Source: an uncultured delta proteobacterium
GTDB lineage: Bacteria > Myxococcota_A > Polyangia > Polyangiales > Polyangiaceae
Length of the DNA stretch: 64,000 nucleotides
Direction of reading: 5' to 3'
Assembly: GCA_963841435.1 (NCBI GenBank)
Contig: CAWJCS010000003.1
Location: 1,056,001 to 1,120,000, forward strand
Below the pieces are notes generated by a model. It made no database searches. It had not been told where the DNA came from and saw nothing but the letters and a program-made list of their open reading frames with translations. The translations under genes and the position numbers were made by a program. Shown here one piece after another: positions 12,146 to 17,712 of this stretch (position 1 is the first letter of the stretch; every line of letters starts with the position of its first letter).

Positions 12146-12178
12146 CCGTCACCAGCTCGTCACGCGTCCGTCACGCAT
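12146..12178 (+). promoter_or_regulatory. Pho-box-like site: three 11-bp-periodic direct repeats
   Basis: CCGTCAC (12146), TCGTCAC (12157), CCGTCAC (12168), exactly 11 bp apart, just upstream of the phoU-pst operon. Confidence 0.75.
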
Positions 12179-12216
12179 TGACGGTGGAAGTAAGCGAAAA
12201 GGACCGCTGCGCCGCC

Positions 12217-13308
12217 ATGACACACTTCGAAGAGACCCTCGAGCGTGACGCGGCGCGCATTCGGCGCAAGATGCAGGAGATGGCCGGCCTGTGCGGCATG
12301 GCGCTCGAAGGCTGCCTGAAGGCGCTCGCGGAGAAAAATCGCCAGCTTGCCTACTCGGTCATCATGCGCGACCAGCGCATCGACGAGCTGGAAAAGGAAA
12401 TCGACAGGCTTTGCCTCGAGTTCATCGTGCGCCAACAACCGGTCGCCGGCACGCTGCGTTTCGTGTACGCAACGATCAAGGTGAACTCGGAGCTCGAGCG
12501 CGTCGGCGACTACGCCGAAAGCATGGCCCGGCAAATCCTCTTGCTCTCGGAGCTCGACGTGCGGGTTCCCATCGAGCGCTTCCGGGAGATTGCGGGGCTC
12601 GCGATCCCCATGTTCCACGGCGCCGTCGAAGCGTTCCTCGCCCAAGACCCCGATCGGGCTCGTCGCACGATGGAGAGCGAGGAACCGGTCGATCGACTGC
12701 GCCATGACCTGAGCAGCGATCTCATCCAGATGCGCCAGGACCAGGAAATTCCGCTCGAGGCGCTCGCGCCGCTGATGGCAATCGTCAACCGCTTCGAGCG
12801 GGTCGCCGATCAGGCGAAGAGCATCTGTCAGGAAGCAATCTACGTGAGCACGGGGGAGTACCTGAAGCACTCGGGTAGCGAGGTCTTTCGTGTGCTGTTC
12901 GTCGACGAGCACAATGCCTGTCGCAGTCAAATGGCGGAGGCCGTCGGTATCGCGCTCGGGCAGCCGAAGTTCGTGTTCACGAGCGCAGGGCTCGACCGCG
13001 AGCCAGTCGACCCCGGCACCATCAGGATCCTCACGGAACACGGCATCGACGTTTCACATCTCACGGCGAAAACCGTCGCCCAGGTGCCGCACCTCGACCA
13101 CTACCAAATCATCGTGGCGCTCGCAAAAGAGGCCCGACGCGTGTTTCCGCCGCCTCCGACCAAGGCCGTGTGCCTCGACTGGAGTATGCCGGATCCCTCC
13201 AAGTTGGGGGGCACGCCCGAGCAGGTTCGCGAAGCCTACGACCGAACGTACAAGGCCCTGGAAGGCTATGTCCGAGACCTCGTGGAGGCCGTCCTCGGCG
13301 ACGGCTAG
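12217..13308 (+). CDS. phoU: Phosphate signalling protein PhoU fused to an ArsC/LMW-PTP-like domain lacking the catalytic Cys
   Basis: Two PhoU repeats (DQRIDELE...QQPVAGTLR...ELERVGD; RFERVADQAKSI) then VLFVDEHNACRSQMAEA, SAG and WSMPDP. Confidence 0.9.
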   Translation: MTHFEETLERDAARIRRKMQEMAGLCGMALEGCLKALAEKNRQLAYSVIMRDQRIDELEKEIDRLCLEFIVRQQPVAGTLRFVYATIKVNSELERVGDYAESMARQILLLSELDVRVPIERFREIAGLAIPMFHGAVEAFLAQDPDRARRTMESEEPVDRLRHDLSSDLIQMRQDQEIPLEALAPLMAIVNRFERVADQAKSICQEAIYVSTGEYLKHSGSEVFRVLFVDEHNACRSQMAEAVGIALGQPKFVFTSAGLDREPVDPGTIRILTEHGIDVSHLTAKTVAQVPHLDHYQIIVALAKEARRVFPPPPTKAVCLDWSMPDPSKLGGTPEQVREAYDRTYKALEGYVRDLVEAVLGDG

Positions 13309-13321
13309 TGAAGGAAGAACC

Positions 13322-14269
13322 ATGACTAAGCAAACTTGGATTCTTGCCGCCTCGCGCGGCCTGCCGCTGGCGCGCCGCGCCGTCACCCTGGGCATCGTGG
13401 CGTTGTTGGCGGGCGGAGCCTGCAAGAAGAAGGCGGACACTTCTCAGGAAAGCGCTGGGGCGACCCCGGACAAGCTCTCGGTCCAGAACATCGGGTCCGA
13501 CACCATGGTGAATCTCGCCCAGGCCTGGGCGGAGGAGTACGCGAAGGTGGAGCCGAACGTCTCCGTCGAGGTCTCCGGTGGCGGCTCCGGCGTCGGGATC
13601 GCTGCGCTCATCAACAAGACAGCCGACATTGCCAATGCGAGCCGCAAGATGGAGCCCGAAGAGATGGAGAAGGCCAAGGCGAACGTCGGGGCGATGCCGA
13701 CGGAATTCTTGGTGGGCTACGACGGGCTCGCGGTCTACGTGAACAAGGACAACCCGCTCGATAGCATCAGCATCGAGGAGCTCGGCGGCATCTATCGTGA
13801 GGGCGGCACGATTTCACACTGGGCGCAGGTCGGCGTCGCAGGCATCCCCGGCTCGAAAAGCGACGACATCATCCGCATCAGCCGCCAGAACAACTCGGGC
13901 ACGTATGCGTATTTTCGCGAAACCGTCGTCGGCAAGGGGCATGACTACAAGCCTGGGTCTCTCGACATGAACGGCTCGAAGGACGTCGTCGAGCAGGTGG
14001 CGAAGACCCCCGGCGCCATCGGCTACGCCGGTCTCGGCTATGCGACGCACGAGGTGAAAATCCTCAAGGTTTCCGCGAAGAAAGGCGAACCCGGCGTGCT
14101 GCCGAGCATCGCCACCGTGCACGACAAGAGCTATCCGATCTCCCGACCGATGTTCATGTACACGCCGGGGGCACCCGCGCCACACGTCAGGAAGTACATC
14201 GAGTGGACCATGTCACCCGCTGGTCAGAAGATCGTGGAGGAGACGGGGTACGTCCCGCTGCTGCGGTAG
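13322..14269 (+). CDS. pstS: Phosphate ABC transporter substrate-binding lipoprotein
   Basis: Signal ending AGGAC; GSDTM, GGGSGVG, SRQNNSGTY, YPISRP. Confidence 0.93.
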   Translation: MTKQTWILAASRGLPLARRAVTLGIVALLAGGACKKKADTSQESAGATPDKLSVQNIGSDTMVNLAQAWAEEYAKVEPNVSVEVSGGGSGVGIAALINKTADIANASRKMEPEEMEKAKANVGAMPTEFLVGYDGLAVYVNKDNPLDSISIEELGGIYREGGTISHWAQVGVAGIPGSKSDDIIRISRQNNSGTYAYFRETVVGKGHDYKPGSLDMNGSKDVVEQVAKTPGAIGYAGLGYATHEVKILKVSAKKGEPGVLPSIATVHDKSYPISRPMFMYTPGAPAPHVRKYIEWTMSPAGQKIVEETGYVPLLR

Positions 14270-14275
14270 GCCACC

Positions 14276-15244
14276 ATGGAGGAACGCGTCGTGGATGTGT
14301 CCCCTCAGTCGGCCCCGGGTGCTAGCTCGGTAGCCGTGCGCCCGCGCCCCCACGTGCGGCGACGGCCGTGGGAGCAGCCACTCGAGATCGGCCTCGAGTG
14401 GCTGATTCGCGTGTGCGGCGTCAGCGCCATCCTCTTCGTCTTCAGCATCTTCTTCTTCGTCTTCCGTGAAGGCGTCGGCATGCTGTTCGGCGGGCTCGAC
14501 CTCACGCAGTTCTTCTTCTCCACCGAGTGGTACCCGACGTCGGTGAGGCACGTCCGCTACGGCGCGCTCGCTCTGATCGTCGGAACCTTCAGCGTTACGT
14601 CGCTCGCGATGTTCATCGCCGTGCCGTTCGGGCTCGGCGGAGCCGTGTTCGTCTCCGAGTTCTGCGGCCCGCGCCTGCGCGAGACACTGAAGATCGTCAT
14701 CGAGCTCCTCGCCGCCATTCCCTCGGTGGTCTGGGGCTTCATCGGGCTCTCGGTCATGAATCCCCTGATTCAGGAGCTCTTCCACGTACCCGTGGGGCTC
14801 AACGTGCTGAACGGTGCGCTCCTGCTCGCTCTGATGAGCGTTCCCATCATGGTGAGCATCGGCGAGGACGCGCTCAAGGCCGTGCCCGATTCGTATCGCG
14901 AGGCTGCGCTCGCGATGGGCGCCACGCGCTGGCAGGCCGTCTACCGCGTGCTCCTGCCAGCGGCGCGCAATGGCCTGCTCGCCGCCGTCCTGCTCGGCGT
15001 CGGGCGCGCCGTCGGCGAGACCATGGCCGTCCTGATGGCGACCGGGCACGCCATCAACATCCCGAAGAGCATCTTCGATCCGGTCCGGACCCTCACCGCC
15101 ACCATCGCCGCCGAGCTCGGCGAGGCGTCCGTGGGCTCCGCACACTACCAGGTGCTGTTCGTCATCGGCATCCTGCTTTTCACCATCACTTTCGTCGTGA
15201 ATCTCGTCGCCGACCTCGTGGTCAAGGGCACGGGCAAGGAATAG
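14276..15244 (+). CDS. pstC: Phosphate ABC transporter permease
   Basis: IELLAAIPSVVWG, REAALAMGATRW, GRAVGETMAV. Confidence 0.95.
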   Translation: MEERVVDVSPQSAPGASSVAVRPRPHVRRRPWEQPLEIGLEWLIRVCGVSAILFVFSIFFFVFREGVGMLFGGLDLTQFFFSTEWYPTSVRHVRYGALALIVGTFSVTSLAMFIAVPFGLGGAVFVSEFCGPRLRETLKIVIELLAAIPSVVWGFIGLSVMNPLIQELFHVPVGLNVLNGALLLALMSVPIMVSIGEDALKAVPDSYREAALAMGATRWQAVYRVLLPAARNGLLAAVLLGVGRAVGETMAVLMATGHAINIPKSIFDPVRTLTATIAAELGEASVGSAHYQVLFVIGILLFTITFVVNLVADLVVKGTGKE

Positions 15245-15247
15245 CGC

Positions 15248-16132
15248 GTGTTCACCGAGACTCCCCACATCAAGAGGAAACGCCGCGAGGAGCGGCTGAT
15301 GCACGTCATCCTCGGCCTGATGGCGGGCGCCATGGTCGTGCCGCTCGTGGTCATCGTCACCTACCTCCTCGTGCAGGCGTGGCCGCTCCTGTCGCTCGAT
15401 TTTCTGCTGACGAACCCGGCGGGAGGCATGCGCCGAGGCGGCATCTGGTCCGCGCTGCTCGGCACCTTCTACCTGGTGACGACGTCGCTCTTGATCGCGG
15501 CGCCCATCGGCGTGCTCGCTGCCGTCTACCTGAACGAGTACGCGAAGAAGAACGTCTTCACGCGCATCATCAACCTCGCCGTCGTGAACCTCGCGGGGGT
15601 GCCCAGTATCGTTCACGCCCTGTTCGGGCTCGGCGCGTTCGTGCTCTTCGCGGGCATCGGCCGCTCGATCCTCGCGGCCTCGCTCACGCTGGCGATCATG
15701 ACGTTGCCCGTGATCATCGCCAGCACGAAGGAGGCGCTTTCCTCCGTCCCCATGTCGTTCCGTGAGGCCTGCTGGAACGTGGGGGCGACGCGCTGGCAGA
15801 CGATCCGCGGCATCGTCCTGCCGAATTCGATCAGCGGGATCCTCACGGGCGTCATCCTGCAGGTGTCGCGCACGGCAGGTGAAACGGCTCCCATCATGTT
15901 CACCGGCGCCGTTTTCTTCAAGAAGATCCCGGAGGGTGACCTCTTTGCCTACAACCTGACGGATCAGTGCATGGCCCTCTCCATGCATTTGTTCACGATC
16001 ACGACCCAGGTCACGGAGGCGCCCCACGCGCTTCCCTATGCCACCGCCGTCGTGCTGCTCGGCGCCGTGTTGCTCGTCAACGCCGCGGCCATCTTGGTGC
16101 GAGTCAAGCTGCGCGCGAGGAAGAAGTGGTAG
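15248..16132 (+). CDS. pstA: Phosphate ABC transporter permease
   Basis: AVYLNEY, LAGVPSIVHALFG, SRTAGETAP. Confidence 0.95.
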   Translation: MFTETPHIKRKRREERLMHVILGLMAGAMVVPLVVIVTYLLVQAWPLLSLDFLLTNPAGGMRRGGIWSALLGTFYLVTTSLLIAAPIGVLAAVYLNEYAKKNVFTRIINLAVVNLAGVPSIVHALFGLGAFVLFAGIGRSILAASLTLAIMTLPVIIASTKEALSSVPMSFREACWNVGATRWQTIRGIVLPNSISGILTGVILQVSRTAGETAPIMFTGAVFFKKIPEGDLFAYNLTDQCMALSMHLFTITTQVTEAPHALPYATAVVLLGAVLLVNAAAILVRVKLRARKKW

Positions 16133-16905
16133 AAGCCGCCCCCGCTCACGGGCGCGCGAAGATCGCGGTGAGCGATCTTCGCCTGAGATACGGGGACCGA
16201 GAGGTGATTCACGGCATCTCGTTCGACGTCGAACCGAACGAGATTTTCGCCGTCATTGGACCCGCCCAATCCGGCAAGAGCTCGCTTTTGCGGTGCTTGA
16301 ATCGGACCATCGAGTTCGAGCCCGAGGCGCGGGCCTCGGGCTCGATCCGCATCGACGGTCTCGACGTCTCCATGGTGAAGAACGTCTACGAGCTCCGGCG
16401 CCGCGTGGGCATGGTGGCTCCGCTGCCCGTCGGCTTGCCCCTCAGCATTTACGAGAACGTCGCGTTCGCGCCGAGGGCCTCCGGCCTACGCGACAAAGCC
16501 GAGCTCGACGCCCTGGTCGAACGCTGCCTCAGGCAGGCCGCGCTGTGGGACGAGGTGAAGGATCGACTGCATTCGCTCGGTACCAAGCTCTCCGGTGGGC
16601 AGCAGCAGCGGCTCACGATCGCGCGCGCGCTGTCGCACGAGCCCGAGATCCTGTGTCTCGACGAGTTCTCGATTGCCATCGATCCCGTGACCACGATGCG
16701 CATCGAAGAGGTCCTGAAAAAGCTCAAGCAGCAGATGACGATCGTGCTCGTCACCAATCTGGTCCAGCAGGCTCGCCGGCTCGCGAGCCACACCATGTTC
16801 CTGTGGAACGGCGAAATCATCGAGGTGGGGACGACCGATCTGTTGTTCTCGGACAAGCCGAAGGACCAGAGAACCTACGACTACGTGAACGGCATCTTCG
16901 GATGA
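16126..16905 (+). CDS. pstB: PstB-like ATPase 1 (degenerate Walker A, Q-loop and H-loop; intact LSGGQ)
   Basis: GPAQSGKS, GMVAPLP, LSGGQQQRL, LDEFSIAIDP, VTNLVQQA, TYDYVNGIFG. Confidence 0.88.
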   Translation: MVEAAPAHGRAKIAVSDLRLRYGDREVIHGISFDVEPNEIFAVIGPAQSGKSSLLRCLNRTIEFEPEARASGSIRIDGLDVSMVKNVYELRRRVGMVAPLPVGLPLSIYENVAFAPRASGLRDKAELDALVERCLRQAALWDEVKDRLHSLGTKLSGGQQQRLTIARALSHEPEILCLDEFSIAIDPVTTMRIEEVLKKLKQQMTIVLVTNLVQQARRLASHTMFLWNGEIIEVGTTDLLFSDKPKDQRTYDYVNGIFG

Positions 16906-17712
16906 TGGCGGCGCTACGTTCCACCGCGCCGCCGCCGGAGACGCTCGAGGGCGGCGGGATCGAGACCCGAGAGCTGTCGCTGTGGTACGCCGACTTTCAG
17001 GCGCTCCACGCCGTGACGCTCAGCATGAAGCGCGGCCTCATCACCTCGCTGATTGGTCCGTCGGGCTGCGGCAAGACCACGCTTCTACGCTGCTTCAACC
17101 GCGTCAACGAGCGCTACGGCTACGTGCGCACGACCGGCGAGATTCGCATCCTCGACAAGAATATCTACGACCCGGACGTTTCACTCGTCGAGCTCAGAAA
17201 GTCCGTGGGCATGGTGTTTCAGCGCCCGAACCCGTTGCCCATTTCCGTGTACGAGAACGTGGCGTTCGGGCTGCGCATCCACCATCCGCGCTCGGAGCTC
17301 AAGAAATCGCACGTCGACGAGGCCGTGGCCAAGGCGCTCACCGAGGTCGGTCTGTTCGACGACCTCAAGGACCGCCTGTCCAGCCGTGCCACCGACCTAC
17401 AGCTCGAACAGCAGCAGAAGCTCTGCATCGCGCGCCTCTTGCCGGTCCAGCCGAAAATCATCCTCATGGACGAGCCGTGCTCGGCGCTCGAACGTCGAGG
17501 GGACGCGCGCCATCGAGGAGCTGATGTGGACGTTGCGAGGCCGCTACACGATCGTCATCGTGACGCACAACATGGCCCAGGCGCGGCGCGCCAGCGACGA
17601 ATGCATCTTCATGTTGCTCGGCGAAATCATCGAGCACCGGCGCACCGAGGATCTGTTCCTGACGCCCTCGGACCCGCGCACGGCGGAGTACGTCGAAGGG
17701 CGCTACGGCTGA
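16902..17712 (+). CDS. pstB: PstB-like ATPase 2 (degenerate signature motif), frameshift at ~17491 (probable sequencing error)
   Basis: GPSGCGKT, GMVFQRPNP, LQLEQQQKL, MDEPCSAL; removing one A at 17491-17492 gives SALDVEGTRAIEE...VTHNMAQA...YVEGRYG*. Confidence 0.88.

Follow-up and report, generated by a model that had tools for sequence, protein, structure and literature searches.

Can a high-affinity phosphate importer be driven by two different ATPase subunits, so arranged that one of its two ATP sites departs from consensus? The question is raised by a pst operon of an uncultured delta proteobacterium (Myxococcota_A; Polyangiaceae; GenBank assembly GCA_963841435.1), lying in the 64,000 nt of contig CAWJCS010000003.1 between positions 1,056,001 and 1,120,000, a stretch referred to below as the window. 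Among high-affinity phosphate importers Pst is the textbook case, and it also serves as the sensor end of the Pho regulon; to our knowledge, its solved structures and working models take the two PstB subunits to be identical and the two ATP sites to be equivalent. The operon in the window ends in two adjacent and dissimilar ATPase genes, here called pstB1 and pstB2, the products of which are about 40% identical. We read the locus as encoding a genuine high-affinity phosphate importer with a PstB1/PstB2 heterodimer that has one degenerate ATP site, and the single surplus base that interrupts pstB2 as an assembly indel; the probability of this reading as a whole is put at roughly 0.78.

For PstB1, the first-pass annotation of the window, made by a model, had described an altered Walker A motif (GPAQSGKS), a Q-loop lacking its glutamine, an H-loop reading VTN, an unusual D-loop (SIAID) and a perfect LSGGQ signature. 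All of these were found in place when the motif register was checked by alignment with the solved E. coli PstB (PDB 9k3x), with which PstB1 aligns end to end (E 9.6e-65). The converse description of PstB2, as having canonical Walker A, Walker B, Q-loop and H-loop motifs and the signature LQLEQ, was likewise borne out; its treatment as an intact single gene was not, owing to a one-base insertion considered below. Both proteins match PF00005 (3.9e-24 for PstB1 and 2.1e-20 for the N-terminal part of PstB2), with Walker A Gx4GK[ST] and Walker B hhhhDE motifs present.

In an ATP-binding cassette (ABC) transporter, one domain supplies each ATP site with the Walker A and B motifs and the A-, Q- and H-loops, and the other domain supplies the signature (PMC7756269; this and the publications below are cited from excerpts). 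In a PstB1/PstB2 dimer each site would therefore draw on both subunits, and all the defects would gather in one of them: the non-consensus Walker-side residues of PstB1 would oppose the non-consensus signature of PstB2, the other site being consensus. In the mechanism we propose, the motor would be a PstB1/PstB2 heterodimer in place of the usual PstB homodimer. Site 1, composed of the Walker, Q-loop and H-loop residues of PstB1 and the L-x-L-E-Q of PstB2, would hold every non-consensus residue, and site 2, composed of the corresponding residues of PstB2 and the LSGGQ of PstB1, would be fully consensus. Site 1 would probably still bind nucleotide, because PstB1 keeps the Walker A lysine and the adjoining serine or threonine, the Asp-Glu pair of Walker B and, for the most part, the A-loop tyrosine. 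Hydrolysis there would be slow or nil, the site acting as a stable hinge or an allosteric site, and transport would be powered by catalysis at site 2, in the manner of heterodimeric ABC exporters. The sequences lend good support to the prediction of an obligate heterodimer in which one site is consensus and the other degenerate. The Q-loop stretch is the part of the ATPase domain that contacts the coupling helix of the permease; the PstB1 Q-loop may have changed in part so as to dock specifically to PstA or PstC.

This arrangement is strongly conserved. Among the best 120 PstB1 homologues (76-100% identity, the window's own protein counted), proline at the position of the Q-loop glutamine, VTNL and [I/V]LCLDEFSIAIDP are each present in all 120, and LSGGQQQRL in 119. 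Walker A reads GPAQSGK[S/T] in 115 of these proteins, GPVQSGKT in one and GPAQSAKT in four; in the last, alanine replaces the glycine before the Walker A lysine, a hint that the P-loop of the degenerate site is less tightly constrained. Among named homologues, the closest bear the label Polyangiaceae (Myxococcota). Whole-genome searches identified PstB1 orthologues in 6/24 genomes of the same genus and in 23/401 sampled genomes of the phylum, the window's genome among them, and 30 further loci, 55-75% identical, came from scanning species-representative genomes. These loci carry labels including Verrucomicrobiota/Limisphaera, Poribacteria, Acidobacteria/Holophagales/Thermoanaerobaculia, Planctomycetota/Pirellulales, Gammaproteobacteria (Chromatiaceae, Accumulibacter), Binatia and Halobacteriovoraceae, although such phylum names are bin labels, some of which may be wrong. 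The asymmetric pairing recurs in Myxococcota and in records that bear the names of some ten further phyla.

The loci other than that of the window number 59: six belong to the same genus, 23 come from 22 genomes of the phylum and 30 are those of the species-representative scan. The changes in PstB1 are found at every one. At 54 loci the signature of an ATPase partner, encoded directly downstream of PstB1, is visible, and it conforms to L-x-[L/M]-[E/D] in all 54. Four further loci (L052, L053, L060 and L113) stop at a contig edge, leaving the partner unseen there, and at a fifth (L100) the partner is present and is cut off before its signature; for three of the four contig-edge loci, a PstB2-type gene lies on another contig of the same genome (G098 and G357). 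At L040/L069, the partner is broken by 200 masked bases. Being present at all 59 related loci, the motif pattern is far beyond chance. The first-pass annotation had proposed a heterodimer with nearly all its defects in one composite ATP site, and had looked to the conservation of the substitutions in relatives as a check: on both counts it fared well, as the changes in PstB1 and the signature of PstB2 are conserved together, and always adjacently where both are visible.

Counts of individual alignment columns give the same picture. The alignment was divided into 59 rows of PstB1 type (including the window), 54 of PstB2 type (including the N-terminal piece from the window) and 27 of canonical PstB, after removal of two duplicates of the window (L001 and L003), the duplicate locus L060, fragments of fewer than 200 residues and, by thinning, some of the canonical rows. 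In the PstB1 type, Pro99, Asn211, Lys51, Asp179-Glu180, Phe181 and each of the nine columns of LSGGQQQRL are found in 59/59 rows, and the A-loop Tyr22 in 56. In the PstB2 type, the Q-loop glutamine is present in all 54 rows and the H-loop histidine in all 53 that extend to the H-loop, with signature position 3 being leucine in 53 and methionine in one, and position 4 glutamate in 53 and aspartate in one. The canonical PstB sequences are consensus throughout in 27/27 rows. Two considerations temper these figures: the groups were sorted by their motif patterns, which is circular for the columns concerned, and relatives are non-independent observations. The same three groups were also recovered by similarity searches with thresholds and by the phylogenetic tree. 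The Ile/Val choice in the PstB1 D-loop looks correlated with the PstB2 D-loop or signature in the raw table, though a tree of the 53 concatenated pairs offers only three to four independent contrasts, too few to give the test any power. Because PLPVGLP, DEFSIA[I/V]DP, TNL and L-x-L-E are invariant, the substitutions in the two subunits appear to be functional and re-fixed, rather than the product of decay.

Tandem pstB genes need not imply a heterodimer. Enterococcus faecalis and Bacillus subtilis, both Firmicutes, also have two adjacent pstB genes at the end of the pst operon (PMC12096839, PMC11466899); those of E. faecalis are reported to have non-overlapping functions (PMC12096839), whilst the B. 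subtilis transporter has been modelled as PstBA-PstBB-PstC-PstA-PstS (PMC11466899). By analogy with E. faecalis, PstB1 and PstB2 might form alternative homodimers or have separate roles in the cell. However, the two B. subtilis proteins (L152) are both consensus, as is the E. faecalis pair (PMC12096839), and the former group with canonical PstBs in the tree, outside the PstB1 and PstB2 clades; the window pair, being complementary in its degeneracy, does not belong to this Firmicute type. In a PstB1 homodimer both sites would lack the Q-loop glutamine and the H-loop histidine, and in a PstB2 homodimer both would have L-x-L-E, leaving the perfect signature of PstB1 (59/59 rows) and the perfect Walker motifs, Q-loop and H-loop of PstB2 unexplained. 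A reciprocal search of the same 401 genomes with an intact PstB2 orthologue (E <= 1e-80) matched 36, comprising 22 of the PstB1-positive genomes, 13 with ordinary single consensus PstBs and one (G169) with a related asymmetric pair; the twenty-third PstB1-positive genome, G202, carries a masked partner. No PstB2 type lacking a PstB1 type was found among these 36 matched genomes of the 401. We consider separate homodimers or separate roles very improbable.

How site 1 behaves within a PstB1/PstB2 heterodimer is a separate matter. We infer its loss of hydrolysis from the motifs alone, and two observations count against this part of our reading: PstB1 keeps the catalytic glutamate, although many known degenerate sites have lost it, and mutants of ABCC1 in which the H-loop histidine of the active site (NBS2) was changed to asparagine or glutamine retained transport (PMC7756269). 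Because of these, 'dead' can be applied to site 1 by inference only. The first-pass annotation had envisaged one dead, possibly regulatory site; a single non-consensus site is indeed what the sequences contain, whereas its being dead or regulatory is a matter of interpretation, given the lysine, the Asp-Glu pair and, mostly, the tyrosine retained in PstB1. The same observations would suit a heterodimer in which both sites are active, asparagine standing in for histidine and another residue for the Q-loop glutamine, with the asymmetry tuning the kinetics or the docking to PstA as opposed to PstC; the catalytic glutamate and the Walker A lysine are, after all, kept in 59/59 PstB1 rows. Yet the Q-loop, the H-loop and both glycines of the facing signature, which become Leu-Glu, are altered together in one site, and the glutamate at position 4 of L-x-L-E-Q is shared with the degenerate site of Pdr5, the signature of which is LNVEQ (PMC7756269). 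Hence we give little credence to two active sites.

Should site 1 of the heterodimer indeed be degenerate, it could be more than a relic. The signature normally meets the gamma-phosphate at the point where L-x-L-E places a glutamate. As PLPVGLP, DEFSIA, TNL and L-x-L-E show no variation over ten or more phylum labels, one might tentatively suppose, whilst thinking it the less likely case, that the site is a purpose-built allosteric pocket, such that one ATP is used per cycle and the energy or phosphate state is reported to the transporter and, via PhoU, to the Pho regulon. Such a pocket would hold a nucleotide permanently, or close on ADP or without a gamma-phosphate. If this were true, an importer of this kind would be the only Pst system of some lineages.

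In a FastTree phylogeny of 155 rows, the PstB1 types cluster in a single clade (support 100), the PstB2 types in another (support 99), and a second degenerate group is sister to the PstB1 clade (support 92), with the proviso that support on long branches needs care. In this second group the first subunit lacks the Q-loop glutamine and has a VTNN H-loop and a consensus LSGGQ, and the partner signatures are LAPEQ, LSAEQ, LTEEQ or LSGEQ. Its members are L025/L088 (from G001, of the same genus as the window), L169 (from G169, in which VTNN is paired with LSGEQ), P0130, P0159, P0179 and P0200. A search of the representative library, in which many of the top matches were fragments, added this second degenerate clade and nothing else. 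Glutamate at signature position 4 is a mark common to the partners of asymmetric pairs. Since the PstB1 and PstB2 types each form a single clade, the pair appears to have arisen once and to have spread as an operon, in part probably by horizontal transfer.

Variation in the arrangement of these genes was also observed. At L077, L078, L080, L084 and L086 (families f46 and f60) the order is pstA-pstB1-pstB2-pstS-pstC, the pair having been kept together through operon rearrangement. In two Poribacteria records (L092, near 5016, and L094, near 5125), a third PstB-like gene is found downstream of the pair, with the motifs GPTNSGKS, VGMVFRKPIPFR, LSIGQQQLL, FDEPCGELDP and FATNK.

In the window itself, the genes form one tight operon on the + strand, phoU(-LMWP)-pstS-pstC-pstA-pstB1-pstB2, with ends that overlap or nearly abut (Table 1); LMWP stands for a low-molecular-weight phosphatase domain. 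The ATG of pstB2 at 16902 overlaps the stop codon of pstB1, and pstS starts with the ATG at 13322, just before which lies GAAGGAAG. In profile searches PstS, PstC and PstA each exceed the cut-off of their NCBIfam family, and the locus has the composition of a Pst operon. Arginines in the window's PstA and PstC align, by positions counted by hand, with E. coli PstA Arg220 and PstC Arg237, which set phosphate specificity (PMC12976172). As the three proteins pass their cut-offs and both specificity arginines are kept, the substrate of the operon is very probably phosphate. TIGR00972 is the best family for both ATPases; its cut-off of 343.2 bits is missed by PstB1 and by the two pieces of PstB2, and likewise by the PstB2 orthologues of five other genomes, which score 288.7-320.9.

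Table 1. Genes of the pst operon and ATPase motifs of its two PstB proteins, in window coordinates
Feature	Position	Strand	Evidence or remark
PhoU fused to low-molecular-weight phosphatase/ArsC-like domain, first operon gene	12178..13308	+	Pfam PhoU 3.9e-36, LMWPc 4.8e-12; TIGR02135 152.9 (cut-off 130.25)
PstS, phosphate-binding protein	13322..14269	+	TIGR02136 251.3 (cut-off 206.6); PBP_like_2 2.9e-42
PstC permease	14276..15244	+	TIGR02138 291.9 (cut-off 196.45)
PstA permease	15248..16132	+	TIGR00974 252.7 (cut-off 193.45)
PstB1, degenerate-half ATPase	16126..16905	+	Best family TIGR00972, 278.2 bits; GTG start overlaps pstA stop
PstB1 Walker A GPAQSGKS	16258-16281	+	Sequence read
PstB1 Q-loop region VGMVAPLPVGLP, Pro at Gln position	16405-16440	+	Alignment to E. 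coli PstB, PDB 9k3x
PstB1 signature LSGGQ (LSGGQQQRL)	16588-16602	+	Sequence read
PstB1 Walker B ILCLDE, then D-loop SIAID	16648-16683	+	Sequence read
PstB1 H-loop VTN, Asn at His position	16750-16758	+	Sequence read
PstB2, N-terminal 196 residues, starting frame	16902..17489	+	TIGR00972 positions 2-175, 217.3 bits
PstB2 Walker A GPSGCGKT, consensus	17055-17078	+	Sequence read
PstB2 Q-loop region VGMVFQRPNPLP, consensus	17205-17240	+	Sequence read
PstB2 signature LQLEQ (LQLEQQQKL), non-consensus	17397-17411	+	Sequence read
PstB2 Walker B IILMDE	17457-17474	+	Sequence read
PstB2 D-loop SAL, then frame break	at 17489	+	Sequence read
Frame break in pstB2, D-loop Asp codon	17490..17493	+	GAAC vs GAC in four same-genus orthologues
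PstB2 C-terminal part, shifted frame, holds H-loop	17494..17712	+	TIGR00972 positions 179-248, 77.6 bits
PstB2 H-loop VTHN	17560-17571	+	Sequence read; lies in shifted frame

A canonical pstA-pstB locus, with a PstB that is consensus at all motifs, lies on another contig of the same genome (G000:C5:579754-580518, L002), and the window operon is therefore a second, accessory Pst system. Elsewhere this need not be so: in two of five carriers, G133 (94% complete) and G347 (95% complete), the pair provides the only TIGR00972 matches at E <= 1e-50, which suggests that the asymmetric system can be the only Pst of these genomes.

The starting frame of pstB2 departs from the PstB alignment after CSAL (17489), continuing as unrelated sequence to 18035, whilst the C-terminal 73 residues, including the H-loop, are encoded in a different frame (17491-17712) that reads VEGTRAIEEL...VTHN...EGRYG before a stop codon at 17710-17712. 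DNA alignment with four same-genus orthologues attributes this to one surplus A, the window having CTCGAACGTCGAG where these have CTCGACGTCGAG; the orthologues of G020, G016, G003 and G007 read SALDVEGTRAIEEL within one frame. A programmed frameshift was also considered and rejected, as all four orthologues, lacking the extra base, read through with GAC, and no slippery run was seen by eye at CTCGAACG.

Of three soil sequencing runs examined, only X1 yielded long exact pieces. One of its contigs, 236 bases long and with a depth of 2.7, covers the 237 bases of the window from 17425 to 17661 with no mismatches and one gap, and is thus one base shorter over a stretch spanning the frame break. The other soil-run contigs were mostly short matches, of 90-95% likeness, to the ABC motifs of other organisms, and are uninformative as to habitat or expression. 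PstB2 is 79% identical to its G020 counterpart, disregarding the one base, compared with 81% for PstB1, 79% for PstA and 75% for PstC, and is otherwise unbroken. Assemblies made of few long contigs often contain erroneous single-base indels, and this genome, of 7.8 Mb in 6 contigs, is one such assembly.

These observations could nevertheless be taken the other way, with the frameshift being real: the single gap of the 236-base contig has no stated position, coverage is low and the assembly may itself derive from this run. In that event pstB2 would be a recent pseudogene in this strain, the asymmetric Pst would be in disuse and the canonical pst operon would supply phosphate. The assembly as it stands does hold the extra A, the second locus on the other contig is fully canonical, and the asymmetric system is accessory in the genus, being present in 6/24 genomes. 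Set against this are the otherwise identical public contig with one base fewer, the conservation of PstB2 on a par with its neighbours and the known frequency of such indels. A recent pseudogene is in our judgement unlikely, and would in any case leave the asymmetric heterodimer valid for the relatives; the extra A is probably an assembly indel. A spurious 'pseudogene' call for the pstB2 of this genome is to be expected from annotators.

The first-pass annotation had also suggested a possible coupling between the asymmetric pair and the PhoU-LMWP fusion at the head of the operon. This connection proved weak in a comparison of 28 related operons, taken with as much as 6 kb of the sequence upstream; one of them (L088) is of the VTNN type. 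The fusion, as one open frame, heads seven (five same-genus loci and those of G433 and G418), and plain PhoU lies between pstS and pstC in eight. A PhoU match occurs elsewhere in the locus at L082, L086 and L088, and the remaining operons either have the order pstA-pstB1-pstB2-pstS-pstC or extend too short a distance upstream. With only 7/28 operons starting with the fusion, the asymmetric ATPase is not tied to it.

The LMWP-like loop of the window's fusion reads VDEHNACRS, with aspartate at the position of the nucleophilic cysteine of C-x5-R. The equivalent loops in G433 and G418 (L068:337-1413 and L071:6084-7157, minus strand) read VCDKNDCRS and LCENNACRS, retaining the cysteine. Because of this difference, the fused phosphatase-like domain may have activity in some lineages but none in the window's genus.

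The window operon shares the five-part architecture and the order of parts with E. coli PstSCAB (PDB 9k3x, 9k3y and 9k3s; PMC12976172). However, E. coli PstB is a homodimer, and as it comprises two copies of one protein both of its ATP sites are consensus, whereas the window encodes two different subunits with one non-consensus site. The logic by which an altered Walker side faces an altered signature is that of TM287/288, TmrAB, BmrCD, TAP1/2, CFTR and Pdr5 (PMC7756269). Those exporters have fused membrane domains, whilst the window encodes an importer of type I that depends on a binding protein and has its ATPases as separate subunits; the Walker B glutamate, lost in most of the exporters, is kept in the window, where it is the Q-loop glutamine and the H-loop histidine that are replaced. 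Bacterial importers with a degenerate ATP site do exist, such as RbsA and NupO of B. subtilis (PMC11466899), but these belong to a different family and importer type, have both domains in one polypeptide and have lost the Walker A lysine that the window retains. In the full-text literature no account of a PstB pair that is degenerate or asymmetric was found, subscription journals and supplements being outside the scope of the search.

The curated PstB model, whose cut-off neither subunit reaches, under-calls the genes of asymmetric pairs. A widespread and apparently horizontally spread asymmetric Pst would provide a natural system in which to count the ATP molecules used per cycle of a type I importer, and would help to establish whether one face of PstB in particular is read by PhoU.

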